Below are positions 24,104 to 61,500 of a stretch of DNA of 64,000 bases, piece after piece. Position 1 is the stretch's first letter; every line of letters begins with the position of its first letter. Under the pieces are notes generated by a model. It did not search any database and was not told the origin of the DNA. It saw only the letters and a list, made by a program, of their open reading frames with translations. The position numbers were made by a program, and so were the translations under genes. This DNA comes from an uncultured Candidatus Saccharibacteria bacterium (GTDB lineage: Bacteria > Patescibacteriota > Minisyncoccia > Phycocordibacterales > DSPV01), in contig CAYGFK010000002.1 in NCBI GenBank assembly GCA_964349135.1, positions 7,535 through 71,534 on the forward strand, read 5' to 3'.

Positions 24104-26278
24104 ATGAACAGAGATTACCCCTTAGACAGAACACGCAACTTCGGCATCATTGCGCACATCGATGCAGGTAAAACAACCACATCGGAGCGCATTCTTTTCT
24201 ATACCGGCTCATCGCACAAGATTGGCGAGGTGCATGAAGGAGAGACGGTTACTGACTGGATGGAACAGGAACGTGAACGGGGTATCACTATTACCGCCGC
24301 CGCTATCACGTGTTTCTGGACGCCGACGTATGCTCGAGTTGGCGAAGGTGGTATTGTTGGCGCTTCGAGTAAAGATGACTCACAGAAACATCGTTTCAAT
24401 ATTATAGATACCCCGGGGCACATCGATTTTACGGCCGAAGTGAAGCGCTCAATGCGTGTGCTCGACGGCGCCATTGTCGTCTTCGACGGTGTTGCCGGTG
24501 TTGAACCCCAGTCCGAAACCAACTGGCGGTACGCTGAAGAAGGTCTCGTTCCGCGCGTTTGCTTCATCAACAAACTCGACCGTATGGGCGCGTCATTTGA
24601 AAAATCGTACGCTTCAATTCTCGACAGACTTTCAAAGAGCGCGGTGCGGTTCCAGATTCCGATGGGGCTTGAGGAAGACTATAGAGGCGTTATCGACCTT
24701 CTCAAGATGAAAGCATTTACGTTCGATGGGAAAATGGGAGAGATTGTGAAGATGGAAGAAATTCCTGCGGAGTTTTTGGAAGAAGCGAAGAAGTATCACA
24801 ATGAACTTGTTGAGAAAGTGGTCGAACACGATGAGGTGCTTATGAATGAGTACTTGGAAGGGAAAGAAATTTCAGTTGAAGCGCTTGTAAAGGCGACTCG
24901 TAAAGGAGTAATTGCAAATAAACTCTTTCCGGTTTTTTGTGGTTCAGCCCTTAAGAATAAGGGTGTCCAGCCAGTACTCGATGCTGTCGTCGATTATCTG
25001 CCGTCTCCGCTCGATGTCCCTGATATCCACGGAATTCATCCGGTAAGTGGCGAGACAATTTATCGCAAGGCGTCTGATTCGGAACCATTTTCAGCACTCG
25101 TCTTTAAATTACAAACCGACCCATTCGTTGGCCAGCTCTCTTTCTTCCGTGTCTACTCAGGAACGGTAGAGGCGGGAAGCTATATTTATAATTCCACGAC
25201 GAGACAGAAAGAGCGCCTCTCTCGAATCGTTCGTCTGCAAGCTGATAAGCGAGAGGAGGTGAAGAAAGTCTTTGCCGGTGAAATTGCCGCAGCGGTTGGT
25301 CTCAAGGATTCAAAGACTTCGCACACGCTCTGCGATGAGAAGCATCCGATTATTCTTGACCCTATCCAATTTGCCGAGCCGGTTATCTCACTTCGCGTTG
25401 AGCCGAAAACAAAACAAGACCAGGAAAAAATGGGCTTTGCGCTCAAACGTCTCTCCGATGAGGACCCGACCTTTAAGATTACGTCAGATTCGGAAACTGG
25501 TGAGACGGTTATGTGGGGCATGGGAGAGCTTCAGCTTGAAATTATGGTTGACCGTATGAAGCGAGAGTTCAAGGTAGAAGCAAATGTTGGTAAGCCACAA
25601 GTTGCCTACCGTGAGACCGTCACGGGGACCGCTGATGCGGAACATAAATACATCAAGCAGTCCGGCGGTCGTGGTCAGTATGGTCACGTAAAACTTTCAA
25701 TTCGTCCGATGAAGCCTCTTGTGGAGGGAGCGAAGATACCGAAGAACGTAACACGTGAAGACCATTTCGAATTCATCGACTCCATTAAAGGAGGTGTGAT
25801 TCCGCAAGAGTTTATTCCTGCGGTTGAAAAGGGAGTTCGTGAAGCAATGGACCGTGGTATTGTCGCAGGCTATAAACTGGTAGATATTTCTACCGAGCTA
25901 ACATTCGGTTCTTACCACGACGTCGACTCATCGGAAATTGCCTACAAGATTGCGGCAGTACAAGCATTTCAAGATGCAGCAATGCGAGCAAGGCCCGTGT
26001 TGCTTGAACCGGTTATGAAGGTTGAAGTTGTTGTTCCTGAAAAATTCATGGGTGATGTGACGGGGGACTTGAGTTCGCGACGAGGACAGATTGAGGGTAT
26101 GGATGAGCGCGGTATGAATAAAGTCGTCAATGCAACGGTTCCGCTTGCTGAAATGTTCGGCTATATCACCAACCTTCGTTCAATGACTGAAGGCCGTGGT
26201 AGCTTTAACATGGAATTTGAACGGTACGAGATTGTGCCGGGAAATGTGGCGCAGACCATAATTGAAGCCAGGAAATAG
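24104..26278 (+). CDS. fusA: Elongation factor G
   Basis: AHIDAGKTTT G1 motif, DTPGHIDF; 724 aa. Confidence 0.95.
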   Translation: MNRDYPLDRTRNFGIIAHIDAGKTTTSERILFYTGSSHKIGEVHEGETVTDWMEQERERGITITAAAITCFWTPTYARVGEGGIVGASSKDDSQKHRFNIIDTPGHIDFTAEVKRSMRVLDGAIVVFDGVAGVEPQSETNWRYAEEGLVPRVCFINKLDRMGASFEKSYASILDRLSKSAVRFQIPMGLEEDYRGVIDLLKMKAFTFDGKMGEIVKMEEIPAEFLEEAKKYHNELVEKVVEHDEVLMNEYLEGKEISVEALVKATRKGVIANKLFPVFCGSALKNKGVQPVLDAVVDYLPSPLDVPDIHGIHPVSGETIYRKASDSEPFSALVFKLQTDPFVGQLSFFRVYSGTVEAGSYIYNSTTRQKERLSRIVRLQADKREEVKKVFAGEIAAAVGLKDSKTSHTLCDEKHPIILDPIQFAEPVISLRVEPKTKQDQEKMGFALKRLSDEDPTFKITSDSETGETVMWGMGELQLEIMVDRMKREFKVEANVGKPQVAYRETVTGTADAEHKYIKQSGGRGQYGHVKLSIRPMKPLVEGAKIPKNVTREDHFEFIDSIKGGVIPQEFIPAVEKGVREAMDRGIVAGYKLVDISTELTFGSYHDVDSSEIAYKIAAVQAFQDAAMRARPVLLEPVMKVEVVVPEKFMGDVTGDLSSRRGQIEGMDERGMNKVVNATVPLAEMFGYITNLRSMTEGRGSFNMEFERYEIVPGNVAQTIIEARK

Positions 26279-26284
26279 GAAAAA

Positions 26285-26317
26285 GCCCCCGTCCGCTTCA
26301 GCGAACGGGGGCTTTTT
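26285..26317 (+). terminator. Intrinsic terminator after fusA
   Basis: GCCCCCGTCCGC/GCGAACGGGGGC hairpin + T5. Confidence 0.75.
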
Positions 26318-26335
26318 AATTAAGAATCGACAATG

Positions 26336-26364
26336 TTATCCACAATGAAAGCTTCTGTGGATAA
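26336..26364. promoter_or_regulatory. Palindromic pair of consensus DnaA boxes (TTATCCACA … TGTGGATAA)
   Basis: Two perfect 9-mers in inverted orientation 11 bp apart, abutting a -35 element. Confidence 0.5.
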
Positions 26365-26369
26365 CTCAG

Positions 26370-26397
26370 TTGTCGGGATTCTTTGAGAGGGTATAAT
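26370..26397 (+). promoter_or_regulatory. Sigma70-like promoter (TTGTCG-16-TATAAT)
   Basis: Near-consensus -35/-10 just downstream of the DnaA boxes. About 70 nt downstream there is a hairpin + T6 at 26441-26474. Confidence 0.45.
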
Positions 26398-26538
26398 TAT
26401 CAGTGCAGGAGAACCGCCTGCGACTTCTCAGAATAAAAGTCCGATTGGGCCCAAAGTGCCCGTCGGGTTTTTTGTTTCTGTTGGAGTCTCGTCACCTCTA
26501 ACGAAATCCTTTATCAGTTATCAATTAATTTAAAAACA

Positions 26539-40420: not shown

Positions 40421-41692
40421 ATGCAGAACTTTTTCCAAAAACTGAAAATGATAGTCAGTGACAGCGTGTTGCGCAAGCGTCTTTTCTTTACGCTTGGCAT
40501 TCTCGTCTTGTTCAGGGCTCTTGCGGCAATTCCGGTCCCGGGTATCGATACAGCCGCGCTCCAAAGTATTTTTGCCGGGAATCAATTCCTAGGTCTATTA
40601 AATGTGTTCTCAGGCGGAGGCCTTTCAAATCTTTCTATCGTTATGCTTGGTGTCGGTCCGTATATTACGGCGACTATTATCATGCAGTTGATGACGATGA
40701 TTTTTCCGAAGCTTAAAGCACTGTATCAGGAAGAAGGTGAGGCGGGCCGTATGAAGTTTTCACAATATTCGCGTTTGCTCACGGTCCCACTCGCGCTTAT
40801 CCAAGGGTACAGCTTCATTGCATTGCTTCAAAGCCAGGGGGTATTCCCACAATTGAGCGGTTTCGATATTCTCATCAGCCTTATTATTATCACTGCCGGT
40901 TCGGTATTTCTCATGTGGCTTGGGGAAATCATCACCGAGTTTGGTATTGGTAACGGCGTCTCACTCATCATATTCGGCGGAATCGTTGCGAGCGTTCCTT
41001 CGACCGTGAGCCAACTTTTGTTCACGTTCGACCCGTCTCAAATCCCGCTCTACCTCGGATTCTTGGTCTCGGCGCTTCTCGTTGTTCTTGGTGTCGTTGT
41101 GGTGACGGAGGCGGAGCGACCCATACCGGTTACCTATGCTCGTCGTGTGCGCGGTATGAAAGTGTATGGTGGCACGTCGACGTATCTTCCACTTCGTCTC
41201 AATCAGGCCGGCGTCATTCCGATTATCTTTGCGCTTTCGATACTCCTCTTCCCGCAGATGTTGGTGAACATTCTCGCAGCGTCAAGTAGCGCAGTTCTTC
41301 AGACGATTTCTACCATCGCGCTCGCCTTTTTGAATAACGCATGGATTTATTCAGGCGTCTATTTCGCACTCGTCGTACTGTTTACGTATTTTTACACAGC
41401 GGTTACGTTCGACCCGCACACACTCGCGACGAATTTGCAGAAGAACGGAGCCTTTATTCCAGGTGTTCGTCCCGGACAATCGACTGCTGCGTATATCTCT
41501 CGTATCCTCACCCGCATTACGCTTGTCGGAGCTCTATTCCTTGGTGTGGTCGCTATTCTCCCGCTTGCGATGCGTGAGATTACCGGTATCGCGTCTCTTG
41601 CCATCGGCGGCACAGCTCTCCTCATCGTGGTATCAGTGGTTCTTGACCTTGTGAAGAAGATTGATGCGCAGATAAGCATGCGCGAGTACTAA
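40421..41692 (+). CDS. secY: Preprotein translocase subunit SecY
   Basis: 10-TM SecY family; 423 aa. Confidence 0.9.
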   Translation: MQNFFQKLKMIVSDSVLRKRLFFTLGILVLFRALAAIPVPGIDTAALQSIFAGNQFLGLLNVFSGGGLSNLSIVMLGVGPYITATIIMQLMTMIFPKLKALYQEEGEAGRMKFSQYSRLLTVPLALIQGYSFIALLQSQGVFPQLSGFDILISLIIITAGSVFLMWLGEIITEFGIGNGVSLIIFGGIVASVPSTVSQLLFTFDPSQIPLYLGFLVSALLVVLGVVVVTEAERPIPVTYARRVRGMKVYGGTSTYLPLRLNQAGVIPIIFALSILLFPQMLVNILAASSSAVLQTISTIALAFLNNAWIYSGVYFALVVLFTYFYTAVTFDPHTLATNLQKNGAFIPGVRPGQSTAAYISRILTRITLVGALFLGVVAILPLAMREITGIASLAIGGTALLIVVSVVLDLVKKIDAQISMREY

Positions 41693-41701
41693 AGTTCAAA
41701 A

Positions 41702-41728
41702 ATCCTCCGCCTCGGCGGAGGATTTTTG
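41702..41728 (+). terminator. Intrinsic terminator after secY
   Basis: ATCCTCCGCC/GGCGGAGGAT + T5. Confidence 0.75.
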
Positions 41729-41797
41729 AATACTTGCCAACTTTTTTTCTGCGTGCGCAAGTATGTTTTGATGGTGTCATGCCGTATACTAGAGTAT

Positions 41798-42406
41798 ATG
41801 AATAAAAAACGTCGGGCATTCATTTTTTACGGCATTTCAGGGTCGGGGAAAGGGACCCAGGCGAAATTGCTTATTGAATATTTGAAGAAACATGACCCCG
41901 AGCACGAGGTCATTTATATAGAAACGGGGGCTCGTATTCGTGAGTTCATTGAAGATAATGCCGGCTATACAAGAGATATGGTGAAAGATGTTCTCAACCA
42001 TGGAGGATTACTTCCTGAATTCGTTCCGGTGTGGCTATGGTCGCATCTTTTGGTGACTCGTTATACGGGAAAGGAAACGCTGGTCATTGATGGGGCCGCT
42101 CGCCGACCTCATGAGAGTCCAATTCTTGAAGGTGCGCTCCGATTCTATGGGTTTGATACTACGACGGTCGTTCTTCTTGAGACTTCGCGCGCATGGGCGA
42201 AAGAGAGACTTCAGGGGAGGGGCCGGTACGATGATGACAATGATGATATAGAAAGACGTTTCAGTTGGTATGAGAAAAACACGATTCCGGCGGCGAATTA
42301 TTTTAGAGATAAGGAAGGGTTTACCTTTCTGGAGGTCAGCGGGGAAAAGACAATCGAAGAAGTTCACGAGGAAATCATCAAAAAGCTTGGCTTTGAAAAG
42401 GAATAA
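41798..42406 (+). CDS. adk: Adenylate kinase-like nucleotide kinase
   Basis: P-loop GISGSGKGTQ; start at MNKKRRAFIFYG. Confidence 0.75.
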   Translation: MNKKRRAFIFYGISGSGKGTQAKLLIEYLKKHDPEHEVIYIETGARIREFIEDNAGYTRDMVKDVLNHGGLLPEFVPVWLWSHLLVTRYTGKETLVIDGAARRPHESPILEGALRFYGFDTTTVVLLETSRAWAKERLQGRGRYDDDNDDIERRFSWYEKNTIPAANYFRDKEGFTFLEVSGEKTIEEVHEEIIKKLGFEKE

Positions 42407-42418
42407 GATAGGGAGAAA

Positions 42419-42453
42419 ACAGGCCGTTCGCTGTGGCGAACGGCCTGTTTTTA
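42419..42453 (+). terminator. Intrinsic terminator after adk
   Basis: ACAGGCCGTTCGC/GCGAACGGCCTGT perfect 13-bp stem + T5. Confidence 0.8.
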
Positions 42454-42472
42454 TTTCTTTGGTTTTGATAAG

Positions 42473-43246
42473 GTGGTTAGTATGGTAACGGTCAAAACCA
42501 AAGACGAAATAGCTCGTTTACGCGAAGGAGGCAAACGTCTCGGCGCTATTTTGCGTACGCTCGTGAAGGCCTCTGTTCCCGGGGCGTCAGCTCAGTCGCT
42601 TAATGTTCTTGCGGAGAAGTTGGTTCGTGAGGGTGGCGATACCCCCTCGTTTCTCAATTACAAGGCGCGAGGTTCGAAGAAGAGGTATCCCGCGAGTCTC
42701 TGTATTTCCATAAACGACCGTGTGGTGCATGGGCTTCCGAGCGAGCATGAGATTATACGTGATGGTGATGTCGTGTCACTTGATATGGGTCTTATCCACC
42801 AAGGTATGTATGTGGATTCAGCGGTGACCATTGGGGCCGGAAAGGTGGACCCCGTTGCGGAGAAATTGATTCGTGTTACAGAAGAATCTCTCCGTGCAGG
42901 TATCAAGCAGGTGCGCGCAGGCAGGCGCACGGGTGATATTGGGTACGCCATAGAGAAGGTGATTAAACCATACCGCTTCGGTATTGTACGAGAGCTTGCG
43001 GGTCATGGAGTAGGGTATGCCGTGCATGAAGAGCCTTTTATTCCAAATTACGGAGAACCGAATACAGGAGTCCTTCTCAAGACAGGTATGGTGCTCGCTA
43101 TCGAACCTATGGTAAACGAAGGGGGAGACGACATTGTCTTGGATGAGGACGGATTTACGTTTCGCACGAAAGATGGAAAACGTAGTGCGCATTTTGAACA
43201 CACCGTACTCGTTACCGCAGGCGCTCCGGAAGTGCTCACGGACTGA
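42473..43246 (+). CDS. map: Methionine aminopeptidase type I
   Basis: Pita-bread fold metal-ligand motifs (…VHG…, DMG…, HE…E). Confidence 0.9.
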   Translation: MVSMVTVKTKDEIARLREGGKRLGAILRTLVKASVPGASAQSLNVLAEKLVREGGDTPSFLNYKARGSKKRYPASLCISINDRVVHGLPSEHEIIRDGDVVSLDMGLIHQGMYVDSAVTIGAGKVDPVAEKLIRVTEESLRAGIKQVRAGRRTGDIGYAIEKVIKPYRFGIVRELAGHGVGYAVHEEPFIPNYGEPNTGVLLKTGMVLAIEPMVNEGGDDIVLDEDGFTFRTKDGKRSAHFEHTVLVTAGAPEVLTD

Positions 43247-44206: not shown

Positions 44207-44483
44207 CGTGGAACTCTCTTTCGTTCTTGTTTCTCAATGGTTTTTTCTTATTCACGTTGCACCGTCACGAGCCATGTGTCGGGGTGTGCTATCCACGTAT
44301 GATTGAGGCATATCTCGGCGTATAGTATAGGCAGGGTTATTCGAAGTATTAGCTCTATAACAAACATTAGGGAGTCCGATATCGTCGCACCGTGATTGAA
44401 ACTTGCTACGCAAGATTCTGATCGAAAGCGACTGAGGACACCCACCTAAGCATAGCTTAGGGTGAAATACTTCATAACCCTAC

Positions 44484-44516
44484 AAAAGAGCGTCTGCGAC
44501 AAGCGGATGCTTTTTT
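44484..44516 (+). terminator. Second intrinsic terminator-like hairpin + T6 in the same noncoding region
   Basis: GCGTCTGC/GCGGATGC stem with two G·U pairs, then TTTTTT. Confidence 0.5.
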
Positions 44517-44553
44517 GTGGGTAAACTATTCTTTCTTGTTATAATCCTCGTAT

Positions 44554-44958
44554 ATGCAAAAAATCCTGCTTTTCAGCTCACTTCTTCTCTCAACACTCCT
44601 TTTCTTCTTACATAAGTTGGCGGGCGCGTATTCACTATATTTCATGCTCCCGTGGTTTGATTCGATGATGCATTTCCTCGGGGGTCTTGCTCTCGGAGCG
44701 CTCTTTTTATGGTTTTCCCTCTTTCTCAAGAGATACGTGAGACTCCTGTCAGCAGTTCCCACAAATCTTCTTGTGCTCTGCTTTGTGCTCTTGATAGGGG
44801 TTGGGTGGGAACTCTTTGAGTATATCTATGACATCACATATCCAGTCTTCACCACGTACGGGTTTGATACAGCGAAGGACCTCGTAGTGGATATTTTCGG
44901 TGCTTGGCTTGTGGTATGGTTATATGCGCATTATGCGCCGACGACTATAACAACATGA
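44554..44958 (+). CDS. Hypothetical 4-TM membrane protein
   Basis: Four hydrophobic helices; 134 aa. Confidence 0.45.
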   Translation: MQKILLFSSLLLSTLLFFLHKLAGAYSLYFMLPWFDSMMHFLGGLALGALFLWFSLFLKRYVRLLSAVPTNLLVLCFVLLIGVGWELFEYIYDITYPVFTTYGFDTAKDLVVDIFGAWLVVWLYAHYAPTTITT

Positions 44959-50678: not shown

Positions 50679-50939
50679 ATGGAGACGATGGGTATGTGAA
50701 AAAATAAAAACATGCTGGTACGGCATGTGTCGCGAACCGGACACTCTTGTTTATACGCCCGCTTCTACAAGACCGCAAGTCTTCTCACGCACTATCACGT
50801 CGAACTATATCGGATTGTTAGAATCTAATAGCGTGCTCAAAATTGTTGGAGTTACCGATACGATTCAACGTGGTGGAGACCGAAGAATGAAATCAGAGAA
50901 CGACTTAACGGTTTAGTTCGACAAGCTATAAATAAAACC

Positions 50940-51146
50940 ATGGCAATCATAATCAATATCGACGTAATGCTGGCCAAAAGAAAGATGAGTGTCACCGAAC
51001 TTGCAGAGAAAGTCGGTATCACCATGGCAAATATTTCCGTGTTGAAGAACGGCAAGGCAAAATCGGTTCGGTTCTCGACGCTAGAGGCAATTTGTAAAGC
51101 GCTCGAGTGCCAGCCCGGAGATATCTTGGAATTCAAGAAGCCGTAG
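50940..51146 (+). CDS. XRE-family (Cro/C1-type) HTH transcriptional regulator
   Basis: 68 aa, …MSVTELAEKVGITMANISVLKNGK… HTH. Confidence 0.75.
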   Translation: MAIIINIDVMLAKRKMSVTELAEKVGITMANISVLKNGKAKSVRFSTLEAICKALECQPGDILEFKKP

Positions 51147-51155
51147 TATGGAATC

Positions 51156-51175
51156 TGTGGAGATGGGCGGAATCG
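51156..51175. repeat. Direct repeat of the tmRNA 3' terminal 20 nt (TGTGGAGATGGGCGGAATCG): distal att-site copy
   Basis: Identical 20-mer to + strand 57570-57589 (ssrA 3' end). Confidence 0.7.
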
Positions 51176-51237
51176 GTCGGGGGATAATTTATCCACACAC
51201 GCGATTTATGGAGGAGAAACGGTGCTAACATAAATAC

Positions 51238-53010
51238 ATGTCTATGTACAAATACGTTATTATATCAGCGCTTATCATTTTAAGTTCCGTTATAAGCGCT
51301 GATTTTACTTATGCCCAGAATGTTGGTCCCGACCAGCAGGCATTTTTCGACGTTCCAAAAATCACTAATAATCTTTCATTGGGAAGCGAAAACCATGACG
51401 TTTCAATTTTACAGAACTTTCTTAAAAGGATCGGAGGTATTTACCCGGAAGGACTTATTACGGGCTATTTTGGGAGTCTGACACAGAACGCGGTCAAAAG
51501 ATTCCAACAATTAGTGGGGATAGAAACTGCGGGCACTGTTGGTCCAATTACGCGGTTGGCAATTAATACGTGGATGTTGGCTGCGGCGTCAGAGTCGGGC
51601 AATGCCCACCGATCTGACAACGCGTCGCCGGCCACCCCTGCAACTCCCGCAACGCCCGCGACACCATCTCCTGGTGGAGGACCTGCAACTCCCGCAACGC
51701 CCGCGACACCAGCCGTTCCAGACCATGTATTAGTTTCACCTCCTCCTCCACCGACGCCGCCAATTATTCCCCCGCCAGCAACGACGACGCCGCCAATTTC
51801 AACGACGACACCTCCAGCGATACAGCCTCCTTCGACCACTACACCGCCGACAGCTACTTCTACAAAATTTATAGTGGGAGATAGGGTATACGCAACTATC
51901 AATCTAAATGTTCGCGACACGCCTTCATTGTCCGGCACCCTTCTCGGTGTTCAGGCATCAAGTTCTTTGGGGCTGATTACCGGTGGTTCGCTAAGTGCTG
52001 ACAATTATTATTGGTGGAATGTTGATTTTGATTCCGGAACTGATGGATGGAGTGTAGAGAATTATCTTGAGAAAGTAGTGGTGTCGCCACCGCCACCACC
52101 CGAAGGTGAACAGCGTATTACGTCAAATACAGCAAATCAGAATTATCCTTCAGTTTACGGCGAAAATATAGTTTGGGAAGACAGAAGGAACGGAAACATA
52201 GACATCTACGGTTACAATTTGACTACAGGGATTGAGAGTCGCATAACTTCAAGCATTGGTGACGAAATACGCCCGTCAATTTTCGGAAATCAATTAGTTT
52301 ATATAGATAGACAGCCAGACCTTTCAAATCCTGGGCATGACACAATTCAGATATATCTTTCTGATTTACAGAACAGCGTCACTAGTCCTCTGATTGGCGA
52401 TTCAAAATTCCAATCTGCGCCCACGATATGGGGGAGCAAAGTCTCTTATTTGGACCATAGTTTAAGTGGAGATAGGGTTTTGTTCGTCTATGATATGTTG
52501 ACTCATTCAAAGGAGCTTGTTGCGAATGGACCAAGTATTACACAACCACATATGGCTGGTGATTTCGTGGTCTGGGCAAATGGTCAAGGCGGGATTTACA
52601 AAACATACACGTATAATTTGCAGACCAAGGTCACGCGTTTGATCACCAACCACTCAGGTGATCAGTTTGCCCCCAAAGTCTCTCGTGAAGGTAAGATTGT
52701 TTTCGCAGACCGAAGGAGTGGGGCAGGCGCAGGTGATTGGAACGTATATATGTTTGATTTGGTTACCAATGAAGAGACGAGAATCACTCCAGAAAATGGT
52801 AGTCAACCTATAGATCTATCGATTTCTGACAAGTGGATTTCATGGTCGCGCGATAGAGATGTCTTTGTGTACAATCTAGCCTCCGGAGTAATAAACAGAT
52901 TGACCTCTCTCCCGACAGAAGAAAAGCAGACGAACCTTTATGGAGATTTGTTGGTTTGGGCAGACGGCAGGGACAGTCAGGATGATATTTATTCGATTTT
53001 CTTGCGTTAG
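51238..53010 (+). CDS. Secreted protein: PG-binding domain + Pro/Thr/Ala linker + SH3b-like domain + β-propeller (PD40/TolB-like) repeats
   Basis: Signal peptide. PG_binding_1-like motif. (ATP)n repeats. 'VGDRVYATINLNVRDTPSLSG…' is SH3b-like. Repeated '…WxDxRxGNxDIY…' blades. Confidence 0.65.
   Translation: MSMYKYVIISALIILSSVISADFTYAQNVGPDQQAFFDVPKITNNLSLGSENHDVSILQNFLKRIGGIYPEGLITGYFGSLTQNAVKRFQQLVGIETAGTVGPITRLAINTWMLAAASESGNAHRSDNASPATPATPATPATPSPGGGPATPATPATPAVPDHVLVSPPPPPTPPIIPPPATTTPPISTTTPPAIQPPSTTTPPTATSTKFIVGDRVYATINLNVRDTPSLSGTLLGVQASSSLGLITGGSLSADNYYWWNVDFDSGTDGWSVENYLEKVVVSPPPPPEGEQRITSNTANQNYPSVYGENIVWEDRRNGNIDIYGYNLTTGIESRITSSIGDEIRPSIFGNQLVYIDRQPDLSNPGHDTIQIYLSDLQNSVTSPLIGDSKFQSAPTIWGSKVSYLDHSLSGDRVLFVYDMLTHSKELVANGPSITQPHMAGDFVVWANGQGGIYKTYTYNLQTKVTRLITNHSGDQFAPKVSREGKIVFADRRSGAGAGDWNVYMFDLVTNEETRITPENGSQPIDLSISDKWISWSRDRDVFVYNLASGVINRLTSLPTEEKQTNLYGDLLVWADGRDSQDDIYSIFLR
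51638..51717 (+). repeat. Tandem in-frame repeat (GCAACTCCCGCAACGCCCGCGACACCA ×2, with shorter ACC-CCT-GCA units) encoding the (ATP)n linker
   Basis: A 27-nt unit duplicated 53 nt apart inside the CDS. Confidence 0.6.
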
Positions 53011-53020
53011 TTTTAAATTT

Positions 53021-53034
53021 TGGAGATGGGCGGA
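53021..53034. repeat. Partial direct repeat of the tmRNA 3' end (TGGAGATGGGCGGA): middle att-site copy
   Basis: 14-nt identity with 57572-57585. Confidence 0.55.
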
Positions 53035-53463
53035 CGCTTCGCTATCGAACTCGTCTCTCGTAAACTCAGGACTCTTTGAGAACACTACAAGAGTACTTCA
53101 TTTTTCTAAAACGGAAGACCGTTAAGAAAAATTAGTCGCTCCTCCGTTCTCAACACCTCGCCTTCGGCGGGTCGCTCTCCGCCACGGGAGAACTCCCGTT
53201 CTCCCGACCCCTCTCTCGGTTCGATTCCGCACGCACGTGAAGCAGTTCACGTGCTCCACTCCATTCAAAAAACAAAAGCGCCCGAAGGCGCTAATGTTTT
53301 TACGAATGGAAGTGGCTGGTAATACATCGAACTCCTTAAAAACCTACCTCACAAAATTTTGGGCGTATTACCAAGGGAGTCAAAACCTTCAGAAATTGCT
53401 TGCTACGGCTTAGCTAAACGCAAAGAGGTTATACAGGAGTAGGGTATAGAGTATAATCAGTCC

Positions 53464-53736
53464 ATGACGAAAGAGGAAATTCAATTTTTCTTTTTTATTC
53501 TACTTCCCATGATTGCCGTTGGAGTTAGTTCCATATACTTGGGAATTAAGATAATACTCGATAAAAAGACACGAGCTTGGTGGGCAAAATGGTGGTGGGG
53601 ATTCTTAAACAACCAAAAGCGTGCAGAAAAACAGGTCGTATTCTTCGACGCACCAATAGTAATTGGAGCAGGGATGATGATTCTTTGGACTGTCCTTTCA
53701 ATCGTGCTTGCCCAATTCAATATCTTTATCTTCTAG
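53464..53736 (+). CDS. Small 2-TM membrane protein (90 aa)
   Basis: Hydrophobic helices; island cargo. Confidence 0.35.
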   Translation: MTKEEIQFFFFILLPMIAVGVSSIYLGIKIILDKKTRAWWAKWWWGFLNNQKRAEKQVVFFDAPIVIGAGMMILWTVLSIVLAQFNIFIF

Positions 53737-53768
53737 GGTAAACGGACACTGCTATAAAAATAATCTCT

Positions 53769-54017
53769 ATGAACCGTCCATCGAATAAACCTTTATTAGT
53801 GACCTGCGTCGTATTTGGAGTAGTCGTAATCTGGTTTGCTGGCGTGATAATCCACCTCGAAAGATACCGTTATGCCAACCAGTCGCATCTCTGCTATAAA
53901 CCCGAGAAAAATTATGTCGTAGATGCTGATGCCTATTTTGAGCGAGAGAATTGCCTAGAAACAGCAGTCCCACGAACGTCAGGTCTCTGGGATTTGTATT
54001 ATGCATTAACCGACTAA
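53769..54017 (+). CDS. Small 1-TM membrane protein (82 aa)
   Basis: Hydrophobic helix; island cargo. Confidence 0.35.
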   Translation: MNRPSNKPLLVTCVVFGVVVIWFAGVIIHLERYRYANQSHLCYKPEKNYVVDADAYFERENCLETAVPRTSGLWDLYYALTD

Positions 54018-54021
54018 AAAA

Positions 54022-54294
54022 ATGCTAGAAATTTTTGAATGGATTGTTTGGGGAATTGCAATATTTATAGCTTTGAGTCTCACTTACGGTGCTGTAAGAC
54101 GATTGATGGCAAAACAGCCAGTAATGAAGGCAACTTTGTATCAGGGGATATTCATCGGGGTGGCGTCGTTATTCCTTTTATTCTCTCCGTCGGTCAGCAA
54201 GCTCCATTTAATTTGGATTGTGCCCGTCTGCTTCCCATTAATTGGATATCTCACTTTCCGCTCAGCTACGAAAGAGGTTGAGGAGGTAAAGTAA
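54022..54294 (+). CDS. Small 3-TM membrane protein (90 aa)
   Basis: Hydrophobic helices; island cargo. Confidence 0.35.
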   Translation: MLEIFEWIVWGIAIFIALSLTYGAVRRLMAKQPVMKATLYQGIFIGVASLFLLFSPSVSKLHLIWIVPVCFPLIGYLTFRSATKEVEEVK

Positions 54295-55024
54295 TAGCCT
54301 TTTTATTTGTCGTACCAAAGTGAATTTCATTACCCTCGATGAGTCGGGATTCTTGTCCTTTCTCGTATCTTTCTTTGAAGTCAGTGAGGTGGGGTCGTGA
54401 GTCGACTGTTCCATGCTCAAAAATTGGGAGTAGTTGAACCAGCGTGTAAGAGGTCTGCACTTCTTCTCTAGTAGGAATTTTTCCTGTCAGGAAGATGCCA
54501 GTAAATACCACGAAGACATGCTTGATGGTCGATTTAATATCGGCTAGTTTTGTGGCAAGTGTACGGAAATCATATAAGGATGGCGTTAAGACTAGGCAAA
54601 CCAAAATAGTGTTTGGTTCGTATGTATTTTCAATCATTTTGTCTCGAATTGTCTCAAAAAGTTTATTGGGCTCTTCCCGATGTTCTACAACCTCAACCTC
54701 ACGTAAGTAGCCCCTATGTGCACCAGGCTTATCTTCTTTAAAAGTTATAACGAGCCCGTCTGGTGGGTCTGGATTTGGCATATTCATCCACCAGTCAACG
54801 TGAGAATCGTCTTTCAATGCCATGGCAACCATAGAAACGCAATAACGTTCCCTGTCCTTTTTGGGCAGCTTAAGAATATCTTTGCCATTGTTAACCATAG
54901 ATTCGGCATATTTAAGCAATCCCTTTACAGGATGATCCCATTGCTTAGCACGAGAATTAATGTCTCGCAGGTTTATCTTCGTCATTAGTGAATCACCTTC
55001 TTTTTCTCCGAAATAAAATGCCAT
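54266..55024 (-). CDS. Hypothetical cytoplasmic protein (252 aa), possible PD-(D/E)xK-like nuclease
   Basis: 'PDGLVITFKEDK' gives a D-x7-E-x-K spacing. Convergent with and overlapping the third small TM gene. No firm family assignment. Confidence 0.4.
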   Translation of the reverse strand: MAFYFGEKEGDSLMTKINLRDINSRAKQWDHPVKGLLKYAESMVNNGKDILKLPKKDRERYCVSMVAMALKDDSHVDWWMNMPNPDPPDGLVITFKEDKPGAHRGYLREVEVVEHREEPNKLFETIRDKMIENTYEPNTILVCLVLTPSLYDFRTLATKLADIKSTIKHVFVVFTGIFLTGKIPTREEVQTSYTLVQLLPIFEHGTVDSRPHLTDFKERYEKGQESRLIEGNEIHFGTTNKKAITLPPQPLS

Positions 55025-55372
55025 AGAGATATCTTATTACCAATTTCCGAATTAATACAAGAATTCCGGCCACATTCACTGGTTTACGTCTGTAGATAGA
55101 CGTTAGCTAATTGACCTACAGTGCCATAGTACATTGCATTACCCCTACCTAGACTGAGATACAAGTAAAACCACTCTCGCCCCATGCAAGTAGCCTACCC
55201 ACCATCTACCATTGCAAACTTGAAGGTAAACAAACCACCCCGGATACGACTTGAAAAGTGATATCCACAGCTCGTTACCCCTTGCCAGGTATCGGTGGCA
55301 CTTAGATATCGTTGAGTCATGGTACATGGTAGCGTTATCGGCATTATAAGTAATACAGCCCGAAGAGGGGCA

Positions 55373-55435
55373 GCGAAGCTTCCGTGTACCAACATGAGGC
55401 CGATCGCTATCCCTCTTCGGGTTTTATTGTTACCC
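55373..55435 (+). terminator. Long-range hairpin (CCCGAAGAGGG…CCCTCTTCGGG) + T-rich tail
   Basis: 11-bp perfect stem enclosing about 45 nt, followed by TTTTATTG; at the end of a 360-nt ORF-free stretch within the island. Confidence 0.4.
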
Positions 55436-55437
55436 AT

Positions 55438-55722
55438 ATGAAAAGCATAGAAAGAAGGTTTGCCAAGCTTCAGGAGTCACGACCTGGCTTGAGCGGTTAT
55501 ATGAATTTCGCTGGTGCAGTGAAGGATGGTCACTTTACCCCTAAGACCATTCATCGTTGGTTCAATCTTTTGGTCGATAAAGATGATTATTCTCGATCAG
55601 ATAAAAGAGCTCTATTCGCACACCTCGACTCGATTTCAAACCCTCCGAGGACGACAGGAATTGAGGGTAATTTTGTCCTTACGGCATCACCAATTAGTAA
55701 TCACGTAGTCCAGAGAGTATGA
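55438..55722 (+). CDS. Hypothetical small protein (94 aa) upstream of the recombinase
   Basis: Start trimmed to MKSIERRF, downstream of the hairpin. Confidence 0.35.
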   Translation: MKSIERRFAKLQESRPGLSGYMNFAGAVKDGHFTPKTIHRWFNLLVDKDDYSRSDKRALFAHLDSISNPPRTTGIEGNFVLTASPISNHVVQRV

Positions 55723-56024
55723 ACATAAAAATAACCCAAATAGAGCCACTTTCAATCGTGGTACATGAATCCATTTCGGTATCGGATGCAATCGTGGTCT
55801 TGGAGTTGTTTATCTACCGGATTACGACTTCAAGGGCGAAAGAGAGTAACGGATTAGTCGTATCTGTTGCTGAATATAGGAAGCTTCTTGGTGATTACCA
55901 AAGTACAGACGAACGCATCACAGATCGTCTGAGGTATCTCGAGGCTTTCTGCAGAAATATTATTAAACCTGAAATAAAAACATATGTCGTTACCAAATCA
56001 GGGGCGCATCAGGCGTCCACCTAA
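55719..56024 (+). CDS. Hypothetical small protein (101 aa), candidate DNA-binding protein or recombination directionality factor
   Basis: Immediately upstream of and overlapping the recombinase gene; no family recognised. Confidence 0.35.
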   Translation: MNIKITQIEPLSIVVHESISVSDAIVVLELFIYRITTSRAKESNGLVVSVAEYRKLLGDYQSTDERITDRLRYLEAFCRNIIKPEIKTYVVTKSGAHQAST

Positions 56025-57609
56025 GCGCCAACGTGGTGGAAGGAAAGTTTTAACCGGAGAAGTAGAGCCAGCTAACACAAAAGCGCTTGGCTATTGCAGG
56101 GTATCGTCTTTAACTCAAGCTACGGATGGACATGGTCTAGATAGCCAAGAGCATCGTTGTCGAACATTTGCTGAACAAAAGGGACTAGAGATGGTAAAAG
56201 TCTTTCGTGATTCTCATACTGGCGGAGGCGATTTTTGGCAACGTCCGGCCATGAGAGAACTTTTGGAATACGTTGATGCACATCCGACTGAAAGATTCAC
56301 GGTTATTTTCGACGATCTCAAACGATTTGCGAGGGACATCCAATTTCACTGGAAGCTACGAACGGAGTTTAGTGCTAGAGGTATTACACCAGCATGTCTG
56401 AACTTTAATTTCGAAGATACACCGGAAGGGGGTTTTATAGAAACAGTAATGGCTGCGCAGGGTGAGCTAGAACGAAAACAAAACCGGAGACAGGTGATGC
56501 AAAAACAAAAAGCTCGAATGGAGTTAGGGTATTGGCCATTTGCCGCTAGGAAGGGTTACACATCAGTAAAAGACCCTCTTCATGGAAAGATATGTAAACC
56601 AAACGCAGGAGGGGAAATATTGGCTGAAGCATTAGCTCTGTTTGAGAACAGGACACTCTTGCGTAAGGTTGACGTTGCCCGTTTCTTGGTCGAGAAGGGA
56701 TTCTGGACTGGTCAGAAACCAGAGAGATATATCGATAAGGTATCACACATACTGCAGGATCCTTTTTACTGCGGGGATATGGAGTATCCCGCATGGCAAG
56801 TAAAACGCAGGACAGCAAAACATGTGGGAATTATCACCAAGGATACTTTTGAGCGAATTCAAAAGCTAATAAGGCGAGAAACTACATTGAAGCGTATCCG
56901 TTGGGATATTTCGCCAGAGTTTCGTTTGAGGGGTTTAATTCTTTGTGACCATTGTGGCAATCATCTCACAGCTGCCTGGTCAAAGAAGACATTCCCGTAT
57001 TACATCTGTCATACAAAGGAATGTGAACGCTACGGCAAATCTATTCGCCGGGATGATATTGAAGGCCAGTTTGACATATTACTTCAGCAAAACACTTTGA
57101 AGCCCGAAATTGGTACTGTTGTCGGACTTGTCTTTGAGAGAGTTTGGGCGCAGGAAATTAATACCATGAAAGTAGAGGTCTTGAATCAAGAGGGTGAGAT
57201 TAGAATGCTTCAAGATAAGGTATTACAACTTACCGATGCCGCCTTGAATGCAAAATCTGCACAGGTAAAAGCTGTTTATGAGCAACAAATAGAAACTACT
57301 GCTGATGAGATCAACGAAATCAAGTCCCGATCGCCATTAGTTCCAACAGACCTAGCTATTCCTTATCGAACTGCCCTTGATAAAGCAACCGGATTACTTA
57401 AAAGCCCATATAAGATATGGCAAAACCTCAATGTTGTTGAGCAACACAGTCTTTACTACTTCGTTTTTGAGGAGAAATTACGATATAACCAAGTCTCTGG
57501 TTATCGAACTGAAAAATCCTCAAGTGCCATAAGGCTCTTTGAGGATTTTGTCAGTAAAAACTCCCTAGATGTGGAGATGGGCGGAATCGAACCGCCGTGC
57601 AAAGAGTAG
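55984..57609 (+). CDS. Large serine recombinase (resolvase/invertase catalytic domain + recombinase domain + zinc ribbon)
   Basis: Catalytic 'GYCRVSSLTQ' Ser motif. Central recombinase domain. C-terminal Cys cluster CDHCGNHLTAAW…YYICHTKEC. The 3' end overlaps the tmRNA 3' end. Confidence 0.85.
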   Translation: MSLPNQGRIRRPPKRQRGGRKVLTGEVEPANTKALGYCRVSSLTQATDGHGLDSQEHRCRTFAEQKGLEMVKVFRDSHTGGGDFWQRPAMRELLEYVDAHPTERFTVIFDDLKRFARDIQFHWKLRTEFSARGITPACLNFNFEDTPEGGFIETVMAAQGELERKQNRRQVMQKQKARMELGYWPFAARKGYTSVKDPLHGKICKPNAGGEILAEALALFENRTLLRKVDVARFLVEKGFWTGQKPERYIDKVSHILQDPFYCGDMEYPAWQVKRRTAKHVGIITKDTFERIQKLIRRETTLKRIRWDISPEFRLRGLILCDHCGNHLTAAWSKKTFPYYICHTKECERYGKSIRRDDIEGQFDILLQQNTLKPEIGTVVGLVFERVWAQEINTMKVEVLNQEGEIRMLQDKVLQLTDAALNAKSAQVKAVYEQQIETTADEINEIKSRSPLVPTDLAIPYRTALDKATGLLKSPYKIWQNLNVVEQHSLYYFVFEEKLRYNQVSGYRTEKSSSAIRLFEDFVSKNSLDVEMGGIEPPCKE

Positions 57610-57965
57610 GAAACCAAGCGTCTACGTAATCTAGGGTATCTTTTGTTTTTCGACGAAAGCGCTAGAAGATACACAAAACACGTTCCCGTCTAGTTTCTAA
57701 GGTTCGCGTGTGCGCCGAAACGAGCGCCTACGCTATCCTGAAAATATCATGCCCGCGTCCCGCCTTCAGGAGAGGTGAGGGCGAACACGTCTACGTATTA
57801 TGCGTGGACGAAAGCAAGGTCGTTAACACCAAAATATGGTGAGAGTACGGCCTGTGCCTTTGCAACTGCTGATTTGGCAGTTATAGGTTCCAACCGTTTA
57901 AGGAGTTATTGGAGCTCCATTACGCAACTTAGCGACCGTGCCCTTTGTCTAGGCCGATCATCCCC
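57572..57965 (-). ncRNA. ssrA: tmRNA (ssrA)
   Basis: Minus-strand 5' GGGGAUGAUCGGCC… and 3' …GGCGG-UUCGAUU-CCGCC-CAUCUCC-A. The acceptor stem pairs with a G3·U70 wobble, the AlaRS identity hallmark. Putative tag ORF ends …NDLAFVHA-UAA. smpB is adjacent. Confidence 0.8.
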
Positions 57966-57977
57966 GTATGAAAATTG

Positions 57978-58424
57978 TCAACGACCTTTCAGTTCTCGAC
58001 GCATCTCCCGTTCGTCATCACGCTTCTTGATGGTCTCCCGTTTATCAAATTGTTTCTTTCCGCGGGCGATTGCAAGGGCGACCTTGATGCGACGTTTAGA
58101 ACTATACACTGAAATTGGTACTACTGTCAACCCTTTCGTACGTTCGGCTTTTGTGAGTTTCTCGATTTCGTCCTTTGTTAAGAGCAAGCGTCGGTTTCGG
58201 GTCTGATTGTAGCTTTCAGGCGTGTTGCCCGGTTGGTAGGGTGCGATGGTCATGCCGAGAATATACGCTTCTCCGCCACGCATGGTGACGTGCGCCCCTT
58301 CAAGAGACGCTTTGCCGGTGCGCACGGCGCGCACTTCAAAACCGAGCAGTTCTATCCCTGCCTCGAATTGCTCCATGAACTCATAGTTGAAGCGCGCTTT
58401 TCGGTTTTCGGCGAAATTCGACAT
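57978..58424 (-). CDS. smpB: SsrA-binding protein SmpB
   Basis: …ARFNYEF…GIELLGFEV…GEAYILGMTIAPY…RRLLLTKDEI…KGLTVVP… SmpB family; trimmed to the conserved N-terminus. Confidence 0.85.
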   Translation of the reverse strand: MSNFAENRKARFNYEFMEQFEAGIELLGFEVRAVRTGKASLEGAHVTMRGGEAYILGMTIAPYQPGNTPESYNQTRNRRLLLTKDEIEKLTKAERTKGLTVVPISVYSSKRRIKVALAIARGKKQFDKRETIKKRDDEREMRRELKGR

Positions 58425-58702
58425 CACAAACAGTCTAGCAGAATCGGTATTACTTGACGATTTCAGGACACGGAGTACTCTTTTACGTGAAAGGACCTCA
58501 CCATGAATGCACTCAAGTTGATTGGAAAGGGGGTTGCCTTCGTTCTGGCGGTATTTATTGCAATGTTCCTCTACGTCGTCTTTTGGGGGCTTCAGCGACA
58601 AATGCAAAGAGACGACCACTCTATTAGCCCGGTCCGCGCTAGCGGACCGGGCCTTCTCTTTCCGTTCCATTTCTTCGCTCGTTGTGTATAATAGTTTTCA
58701 CT

Positions 58703-61182: not shown

Positions 61183-61332
61183 CATATATTTGCAGTTGAA
61201 TCGAGTGAACCTTCTATATCATAGATATACCTTGGGGGTGAGAAGCGAACACTTGGAGCTTCGCAAGGTCGGAGTTCGCGAAGGCGAACGAGACGGGGTC
61301 GCGGGATTCGCCAGCGGGCGAATACCCGTGAC

Positions 61333-61361
61333 CTTGGTTCGAGTCCAAGCAGGCGGAACGA
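61333..61361 (+). other. tRNA 3'-half-like element (T-arm CTTGG-TTCGAGT-CCAAG + acceptor CAGGCGG-A)
   Basis: Perfect T-arm plus an acceptor 3' strand complementary to the 5' fragment at 61043. Its last 16 nt recur at 61476-61491. Confidence 0.4.
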
Positions 61362-61475
61362 AGTGACGACTGAAGCGAGCAAACTGCTTTGCTCGCGTTT
61401 GGATGAGAAGGGTTTTGCGCTGTCTTCTGACCGTAAAACTCCGGCCGATGCCCGATAAGCATCGGGAGTCCAAGC

Positions 61476-61491
61476 AGGCGGAATAAATTCC
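61476..61491 (+). repeat. 16-nt direct repeat (TCCAAGCAGGCGGAAT) of the tRNA-like 3' end
   Basis: Exact duplicate of 61346-61361, 130 nt downstream. Confidence 0.5.
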
Positions 61492-61500
61492 CAGTTTAAA

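Follow-up and report, generated by a model that had tools for sequence, protein, structure and literature searches.

We analysed a 64,000-nucleotide (nt) window from a contig of an uncultured, ultra-small Patescibacteria bacterium with a focus on positions 53035-55437, which lie between a copy of the 3' end of the transfer-messenger RNA (tmRNA) gene ssrA and the recombinase operon of an ssrA-targeted element. The stretch carries, in this order, a structured segment free of open reading frames (ORFs; 53040-53460), three small membrane-protein genes on the + strand, a gene for a protein of 252 amino acids (aa) on the - strand, and a second ORF-free stretch that ends in a long hairpin just before the recombinase operon. 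All features that an earlier sequence-only reading had listed here were found again at their coordinates. We consider it fairly probable that the stretch is the cargo half of a small ssrA island, and that it is composed of two unrelated modules plus control DNA and not of one system.

The first group of genes encodes proteins of 82 to 90 aa, whose transmembrane segments were predicted from hydropathy. Small membrane protein 1 (53464-53736, + strand, 90 aa) has two such segments, although public gene calls begin at M16 and yield 75 aa. Small membrane protein 2 (53769-54017, + strand, 82 aa) has one segment and a conserved tail, HLERYRYANQ...LWDLYYAL, and small membrane protein 3 (54022-54294, + strand, 90 aa) has three segments and 32 invariant columns in nine sequences. 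For protein 1, HMMER run exhaustively against 1.84 billion representatives returned five distant homologs (36-41% identity) and one weaker partial match, while three homologs were found for protein 2 (66-69% identity) and eight for protein 3 (62-80% identity). Between the window and the other elements, the proportion of synonymous differences (pS) was 0.81-0.82 for protein 2 and 0.81-0.88 for protein 3, and the proportion of nonsynonymous differences (pN) was 0.19-0.25 and 0.22-0.35, respectively. With synonymous sites saturated and pN low, the genes are therefore protein-coding and under purifying selection, and the coding check thus upheld the proposal of three genuine membrane-protein genes.

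The homologs of the small proteins occur in varied surroundings (the L numbers denote the loci compared here and below). Homologs of protein 3 follow a tyrosine integrase at an island end adjoining ftsZ (L038), lie near a Recombinase-domain gene (L040), or stand beside two ORFs that by eye resemble an AbiE toxin-antitoxin pair (L046). Protein 2 is found amid other small secreted proteins in L047, and in L043 a Schlafen/AlbA_2 gene comes after the directly neighbouring genes of proteins 2 and 3. None of the three proteins matched holin, toxin or immunity families above noise in Pfam, PHROGs or PADLOC. The comparison of the cargo proteins with PHROGs gave nothing meaningful, the matches of small protein 3 and a 101-aa protein being at chance level (E 0.03 or worse), and IMG/VR contained no relatives of small protein 3.

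The convergent gene (54266-55024, - strand), which overlaps small gene 3 by 29 nt, had been called an ORFan. This description did not survive a word-indexed search, which returned 146 homologs at E 1e-3 or better with identities from 82% to about 28%. All named sources are Patescibacteria (Parcubacteria, Giovannonibacteria, Paceibacterota, Saccharibacteria, Zambryskibacteria and Nealsonbacteria), one homolog contig being binned as Gammaproteobacteria, and the homologs were found solely in Patescibacteria metagenome assemblies. Neither the 252-aa protein nor 50 family members had a match in Pfam, NCBIfam, PHROGs, PADLOC or the PDB sequences, and the family had no relatives in IMG/VR, the GenBank phages or the PLSDB plasmids. 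With regards to selection, the ratio of nonsynonymous to synonymous substitution rates (dN/dS) against the 82%-identical homolog was 0.064. The alignment of 50 sequences contains 14 invariant columns, among them E59, P88-D89-G90, K129, Y135 and C143, together with DPPDG around D89 and a near-invariant block R108-E109-V-E111-V-V-E114-H115 (REVEVVEH). The putative nuclease motif of the sequence-only reading, 'PDGLVITFKEDK' (D-x7-E-x-K), was thereby sustained in one half: its PD is invariant, but the E-x-K of FKEDK lies in a variable loop.

Structure prediction with AlphaFold2 and the family alignment gave a full-length model with a predicted local distance difference test (pLDDT) of 89 and a predicted template modelling score of 0.88, and a model of core residues 50-180 with a pLDDT of 93.7. 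The order of elements is helix 55-74, strand 79-81, strand 90-99, strand 102-115, helix 119-132 and strand 140-145. This alpha-beta-beta-beta-alpha-beta order is the topology of a restriction-endonuclease-like core, so that the nuclease-like fold suspected earlier was borne out by the models (pLDDT 89 and, rounded, 94). In the model, E59 is located in helix 1, D89 at the start of strand 2, E109 and E111 in strand 3 and K129 in helix 2. Strand 3 thus carries E109-V-E111 in place of (D/E)-x-K, and an invariant lysine, K129, is found in the following helix. The corresponding motif of BamHI is E-x-E. Foldseek searches with the full model returned no PDB structure at E 1e-3 or better, and the weak matches were enriched in PaqCI, CdiA-CT nuclease, MspJI, AspBHI, SPARDA, Cdn1 and Kpn2I. 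Against BFVD, the full model had one unnamed match (E 5.5e-4) and weaker ones, among them UL24, Mrr-like and PD-(D/E)XK proteins. The core model ranked MspJI first in the PDB (probability 0.94-0.97, TM-score 0.42-0.49, 122-130 of 131 columns), followed by AspBHI, MUS81-EME1 and BamHI at E values of about 1e-2; SPARDA (ranks 40-41) and HamA (rank 50) had probabilities of 0.14-0.21. Profile-profile comparison of the family with the neighbouring DUF2726 and PDDEXK_5 proteins, for which the templates were single sequences, was uninformative. Judged by these models, the protein is most aptly placed in a new sequence family that has the restriction-endonuclease fold, with E59, D89, E109-x-E111 and, from the following helix, K129 as putative metal-binding residues.

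The genomic context of the family was surveyed at 24 non-redundant loci. The family gene is usually the last of a same-strand cluster and stands a few nt from, or overlaps, an upstream neighbour that varies. The gene of an HNH_5 protein (about 330 aa) immediately precedes it in L001, L031 and L035 and is two genes distant in L017, an OLD-type ATPase-TOPRIM nuclease (best PADLOC model 'Old') lies upstream in L018, L019 and L024, and a DUF4268 protein, the PADLOC candidate PDC-S11, is the partner in L004 and L020. Restriction-modification sets of the R.HinP1I, CfrBI and MvaI/BcnI types accompany the gene in L011, L021 and L001, DUF2726 in L015, Schlafen/AlbA_2 (SLFN_AlbA_2) in L022, and a cluster of ResIII, HARE-HTH/PDDEXK_5 and S49 peptidase genes in L030. 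Genes of defence type are adjacent to the family homologs at most of the loci, and a serine recombinase lies within 5 kb of the family gene in 5 of the 24. Because relatives directly adjoin HNH_5, OLD-type, DUF4268/PDC-S11, DUF2726, Schlafen/AlbA_2 and type II restriction genes, we infer that the 252-aa protein cuts DNA as a Mg2+-dependent endonuclease and thereby defends its host against foreign DNA.

Across lineages, the HNH_5 gene keeps company with the family (HNH_5 identities of 90%, 70% and 47%), and it is translationally coupled to the family gene in each of the three closest relatives whose context could be used (82%, 81% and 65% identity). The HNH_5 protein linked to the 250-aa family measures 325-347 aa and was observed in four lineages, usually 5 nt upstream of the family gene or overlapping it by 4 nt (L001, 7012-8747; L031, 7018-8753; L035, 3191-4980; L017, 2741-5050). 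Both genes together form a possible two-nuclease module, for which no PADLOC, NCBIfam or PDB match was obtained. A pseudogene of this partner was sought in 55025-55440 by tblastn with four HNH_5 proteins; nothing above chance was detected there or elsewhere in the 64 kb. The window copy of the family is considered solo because neither an HNH_5 gene nor a remnant of one is present in the window, and further solo copies are found in L006/L012 and L036. A separate arrangement concerns three Saccharibacteria-type contigs, in which a P2 Old-like ATPase-TOPRIM gene is directly followed by a member of the 250-aa family (L018, 2608-5204; L019, 1152-3671; L024, 5769-8591). This pairing differs from the Gabija (GajB), PARIS (AriB) and retron partners.

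The first ORF-free stretch (53040-53460) contains only short, overlapping mechanical ORFs of at most 58 aa. It is organised as a decayed ssrA fragment, a spacer, a hairpin cluster, a terminator, a second spacer of about 130 nt and a promoter-like site. Three GC-rich hairpins were folded on the + strand at 53166-53183, 53185-53206 and 53233-53254; the sequence ACGGGAGAACTCCCGT belongs to the 9-bp stem of the second, and CACGTGAA-GCAG-TTCACGTG forms the third. For 53125-53305, the fold z-scores of the + and - strands are -5.2 and -2.5, respectively. When all 150-nt windows of the 64 kb were ranked after correction for GC content, those starting at 53176 and 53226 came first, which supports the earlier description of this segment as structured. 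The T-arm-like sequence GGTTCGATTCC noted before (53218-53228) likewise held up: the 14-mer CGGTTCGATTCCGC (53217-53230), which lies within the cluster, repeats the ssrA T-loop core exactly in inverted orientation, and two copies of this T-loop 14-mer are present in the window where 0.04 would be expected by chance. The cluster is followed by a bidirectional intrinsic terminator (53268-53301, both strands), composed of an A-run, the stem-loop AGCGCC-CGAA-GGCGCT (53277-53292) and a T-run. A comparable arrangement of three perfect hairpins and a terminator (600-780, z -7.1) lies upstream of the small-gene pair in L043. One of its 8-bp stems has a GCAG loop, as has the window hairpin 53233-53254, but the sequence similarity between both spacers is not significant. 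The hairpins were also considered as a dispersed repeat (repetitive extragenic palindrome or miniature inverted-repeat transposable element), and this was rejected, as the window and the loci contained no further copies except on same-species contigs. An extended homolog of the ssrA 3' domain in 53120-53265 was rejected as well, the alignment being restricted to the T-loop core. The proposed Rfam check of both ORF-free stretches yielded no family in Rfam 15 (best score 19.7 bits against a cut-off of 50, with E values up to 10 considered on a 531-nt slice), and ARAGORN called no tRNA in either.

The second stretch (55025-55437) begins with a divergent intergenic region (55025-55356). On its - strand, the promoter-like hexamer TAAGAT is separated by 6 nt from the start codon of the 252-aa gene. 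It ends with an inverted repeat on the + strand that folds into a long interrupted hairpin of about 19 outer and 9 inner pairs (55357-55423), followed by the U-tract UUUUAUUGUU up to position 55434. The terminal long-range hairpin described before is therefore present. The element has a z-score of -4.6 on the + strand and ends 4 nt before the ATG at 55438, and the windows starting at 55301 and 55351 are among the top 25 of the structure scan. It is a terminator or attenuator ahead of the recombinase operon.

Among the promoter-like sites of the region, TATACA-16-TATAAT (53430-53457, + strand) scored highest (10/12), and its -10 hexamer ends 6 nt before the ATG of small gene 1 at 53464. The same spacing of 6-7 nt between a -10-like hexamer and the ATG, with no Shine-Dalgarno sequence, recurs at the 252-aa gene, a helix-turn-helix (HTH) gene and a 590-aa gene. 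Examples are TATAAT-cagtcc-ATG (53457-53464) and TAAGAT-atctct-ATG (55024-55036), as well as TATAAA-taaaacc-ATG and TAACAT-aaatac-ATG at the sites 50930-50940 and 51228-51238. This pattern suggests a frequent use of leaderless mRNAs by the genome. Neither of the convergent cargo units has a strong terminator before the coding region of its partner; the first strong terminators beyond the partner unit are located at 53277-53292 for the - strand and at 55357-55434 for the + strand. The two flanking terminators would therefore bound the pair and keep read-through out of the recombinase operon and of the gene outside.

The target of the element is the tmRNA gene (57569-57965, - strand), which was identified by ARAGORN and by Rfam RF00023 with 94.7 bits and is followed in the gene order of the window by SmpB, FtsH, tRNA-Ile and RecG. 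Directly inside its 3' end lies the recombinase operon (55438-57609, + strand) with two small genes that match no family (55438 or 55501 to 55722, and 55719-56024, both + strand) and the gene of a 541-aa large serine recombinase (55984-57609, + strand). The latter contains the Pfam domains Resolvase, Recombinase and Zn_ribbon_recom and matches a PHROG integrase at 3e-54, while distant matches to XisF and CcrB stayed under the cut-off (CcrB 61 bits against 900). The final 40 nt of the recombinase gene are shared with the ssrA 3' end on the opposite strand, so that excision would alter the last 13 codons of the reading frame. The ssrA 3' end recurs at two other places. The one that had been proposed as the distal attachment (att) copy was indeed found next to the first ORF-free stretch (53019-53052, - strand, TGGAGATGGGCGGA[CGCTTCGCT]ATCGAAC), but it is degenerate. 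It covers acceptor strand and T-loop with 14 exact nt, a 9-nt insertion and ATCGAAC, reaches beyond the boundary of the 20-nt repeat into the T-arm, and is a relic att site or ssrA fragment. An exact copy lies 1.9 kb further out (51156-51175, 20/20 identity to 57570-57589), where divergence from ssrA sets in after ...AATCG within the T-loop. It is the better candidate for the outer boundary (attR).

Since the recombinase adjoins ssrA and the ssrA 3' end recurs at 51156 and 53019, the stretch 53035-55437 lies inside an ssrA-integrated element, and its earlier description as island cargo stands. The G+C content is 0.42-0.46 over about 52000-58000 and 0.46-0.51 in the 10 kb on each side. The island would measure 4.5 kb if bounded at 53019 and 6.4 kb if bounded at 51156. 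In the latter case, the 590-aa PG_binding_1/beta-propeller gene with PATPATP repeats, which stands between both copies (51238-53010), would be part of the island or of an older tandem island, and the placement of the two copies suggests either one larger island or two tandem ones. The predicted junctions read ...GGAATCTGTGGAGATGGGCGGAATCGAACCGCC... for the empty site and ...CCCTAGATGTGGAGATGGGCGGAATCGGTCGGGGGATAA... for the circle. The dyad symmetry of the reconstructed attP and attB sites was barely above background and was not used as evidence.

Several observations were made in the vicinity of ssrA and elsewhere in the window. The tmRNA tag peptide predicted by ARAGORN, AKSAVAKAQAVLSPYFGVNDLAFVHA (57571-57965), is long and has an atypical end. 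The SmpB frame (57978-58670) encodes 230 aa with the SmpB domain only in residues 87-228; either the N-terminus carries a long extension or the start was placed wrongly. The spacer from tRNA-Ile(UAU) to recG (61184-61500) has a G+C content of 0.6, a z-score of -3.8 and no Rfam match. In it, the tRNA-Ile 3' end TCCAAGCAGGCGGA is repeated at 61344-61357 and 61469-61482, giving three copies in the window where 0.2 are expected, and these repeats look like relic att repeats of past integrations at this tRNA. Four other regions of stable fold in the 150-nt scan (26226-26426, 41600-41825, 42351-42550 and 44376-44575, z -3.2 to -4.1) matched no Rfam family at gathering thresholds.

Taken together, the favoured reading is that of an island in a Patescibacteria genome of Parcubacteria-like type, integrated at the ssrA 3' end, which would be mobilised by the 541-aa large serine recombinase. 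Module 1 would be an operon of three membrane proteins, probably leaderless, with proteins 2 and 3 as a conserved pair, each of which also turns up elsewhere in related bacteria, in regions that are accessory or bear an integrase. Module 2 would be a solo member of a Patescibacteria-restricted family of about 250 aa with a PD-(D/E)xK-type core. The ORF-free stretches would then serve as module boundaries: the first combines a decayed ssrA fragment, hairpins, a terminator and a putative promoter, and the second combines putative divergent promoters with a strong terminator or attenuator, which may shield the recombinase operon from read-through out of the convergent cargo. The nuclease relatives among defence genes agree with the earlier suggestion of anti-phage cargo, whereas its toxin-immunity and holin variants found no match in the family models, and PADLOC recognised neither the 252-aa protein nor the three small membrane proteins nor the two recombinase-proximal ones. 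A prophage or holin interpretation was rejected, as the cargo had no meaningful PHROG match, IMG/VR contained no relatives of the nuclease family or of small protein 3, and the phage and plasmid collections contained none of the nuclease family.

Several points weigh against the favoured reading. The canonical (D/E)xK lysine is replaced (E-x-E), so that catalytic competence is presumed only; the family, moreover, matches no PADLOC model. At two loci the neighbours are housekeeping genes, namely UvrB (L027) and sigma-70 (L023). An insulator function leaves the exact inverted T-loop 14-mer without explanation, and the inner copy at 53019 is more decayed than the outer one, which is unexpected under a simple history of tandem insertion. 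Furthermore, an island-free allele or circular junction was sought by means of the flanking HTH protein, and the contigs showed either the same arrangement or a break at that point; since neither was found among them, the mobility of the island is putative.

The sequence-only reading had combined the small membrane proteins and the opposed nuclease into one candidate accessory system. Such a unit could act in abortive infection, in toxin-immunity or as a nuclease with membrane effectors, perhaps with mutual antisense regulation. The convergent 29-nt overlap, the lack of strong termination before the partner's coding region and the shared status as island cargo are in line with such a unit, as are the Schlafen/AlbA_2 gene after the small-protein 2-3 pair in L043 and the gene of this type before the nuclease homolog in L022. 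However, tblastn detected homologs of the small genes at 0 of the 24 nuclease-family loci, with matches only on the same-species contigs L007-L009, and such homologs do occur at loci that lack the nuclease family. As there is no co-occurrence outside the species, the layout of membrane proteins opposed to a nuclease is specific to the island of this one species. In addition, the holin, toxin, immunity and PADLOC models all remained without a match, and the conserved partner of the nuclease family is HNH_5 and not a membrane protein. We therefore regard a single unit as very improbable. A role of the 252-aa protein outside defence deserves somewhat more credit but is still unlikely. It could serve in repair or recombination or in maintenance of the element, act as a Vsr- or MUS81-like nuclease or a selfish nuclease cassette, or merely bind DNA as a non-catalytic protein. 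MUS81 and Mre11/SbcD among the weak structural matches, the E-x-E motif that lacks the canonical lysine and the UvrB neighbour in L027 would fit such a role, and the family gene appears as an extra after complete restriction-modification pairs in L011, L021 and L001 and as solo copies with no accompanying methyltransferase. On the other hand, the top structural matches are the restriction enzymes MspJI and AspBHI, the neighbours are overwhelmingly of defence type and vary by lineage, as is typical of defence islands, and the invariant acidic residues argue for catalysis.

The hairpin cluster (53134-53301) could be a functional element in its own right. It might encode a small RNA or serve the island as a DNA site that resembles a tRNA or an att site, for example as a secondary recombinase site for inversion or as an analogue of the Dehalococcoides tRNA-like locus. 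We give this a modest chance. It is the most structured 150 nt of the 64 kb, with a z-score of -5.2 on the + strand, a terminator stands at its end, and the analogous cluster with terminator precedes the small-gene pair in L043. Moreover, the 14-nt inverted T-loop copy, far beyond chance, spans the inferred crossover point and lies 4.35 kb from the ssrA end, and a conserved tRNA-like locus has been described at about 4.4 kb (PMC3146451). These points are countered by the absence of an Rfam family or ARAGORN call, by a T-stem of just three pairs from which no cloverleaf can be drawn, by the end of the ssrA similarity at the T-loop, by the L043 spacer with its insignificant sequence similarity, and by the lack of a convincing upstream promoter. 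The spacer has copies in the same species only, which puts covariation out of reach, and for this reason a functional RNA or DNA site stays a rival reading to that of a module boundary. A broader combination, which we put forward as similarly speculative, would join several of these elements: a Patescibacteria-specific defence branch of the restriction-endonuclease fold, ancestrally a two-nuclease module with HNH_5, whose functional solo version was spread by serine-recombinase islands and in which the hairpin cluster is a second recombinase site or a small RNA that controls the island.

The genomes of Patescibacteria are tiny, and few defence systems have been recognised in them. A nuclease-fold family without a name, which recurs in their defence-type clusters and travels on tmRNA-targeting islands, is a reasonable candidate for functional testing. 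The locus also extends the Dehalococcoides style of ssrA/serine-recombinase island to another phylum. Overall, the cargo is an ordinary modular one in an under-studied phylum, and the defence-island gene in it is a further uncharacterised one on an integrative element of ordinary kind.

For better comparison, the locus was set against three known types of system. The defence-island candidates (the PADLOC PDC set and the OLD and HNH single-gene systems) resemble the 252-aa family in that the latter occurs in variable clusters of restriction-modification, OLD, HNH, DUF4268-PDC-S11 and Schlafen genes and on integrative elements. However, the family differs from them in that it matches no PADLOC model and was found only in Patescibacteria metagenomes. 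The catalytic domains of MspJI and AspBHI, which are type IV modification-dependent restriction endonucleases, share with the modelled core the order of fold elements, an invariant Asp that starts strand 2 and conserved acidic residues in strand 3. In contrast, the identity of 11-13% amounts to no sequence similarity, and E reaches only about 1e-2; the 252-aa protein lacks an SRA-like domain for modified-base binding, its N- and C-terminal parts are unrelated, and it carries E-x-E instead of (D/E/Q)-x-K.

The closest parallel to the island as a whole is found in the ssrA-specific genomic islands of Dehalococcoides (McMurdie et al. 2011, PMC3146451). The host phylum here is Patescibacteria, and the island is much smaller. 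Of the six-gene integration module of those islands, the five members other than the recombinase DsiB (DsiA and the RecF-like, ParB-like, Mom-like and large proteins) are all undetectable here, and where Dehalococcoides has a tRNA-Gly-like locus, the present island has the T-loop copy and, according to ARAGORN and Rfam, no complete tRNA-like gene. Both nevertheless integrate at the 3' end of a single-copy tmRNA gene and have a serine recombinase of about 540 aa adjoining attL (541 aa here, the likeness being one of size and place). The repeat boundary falls within the T-loop in both (PMC3146451), more than one downstream copy of the ssrA end indicates a tandem or nested history, and the cargo is variable. 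Finally, the Dehalococcoides islands have a tRNA-related sequence at a distance of about 4.4 kb from attL, and the 14-nt T-loop copy of the present island is found at 4.35 kb.

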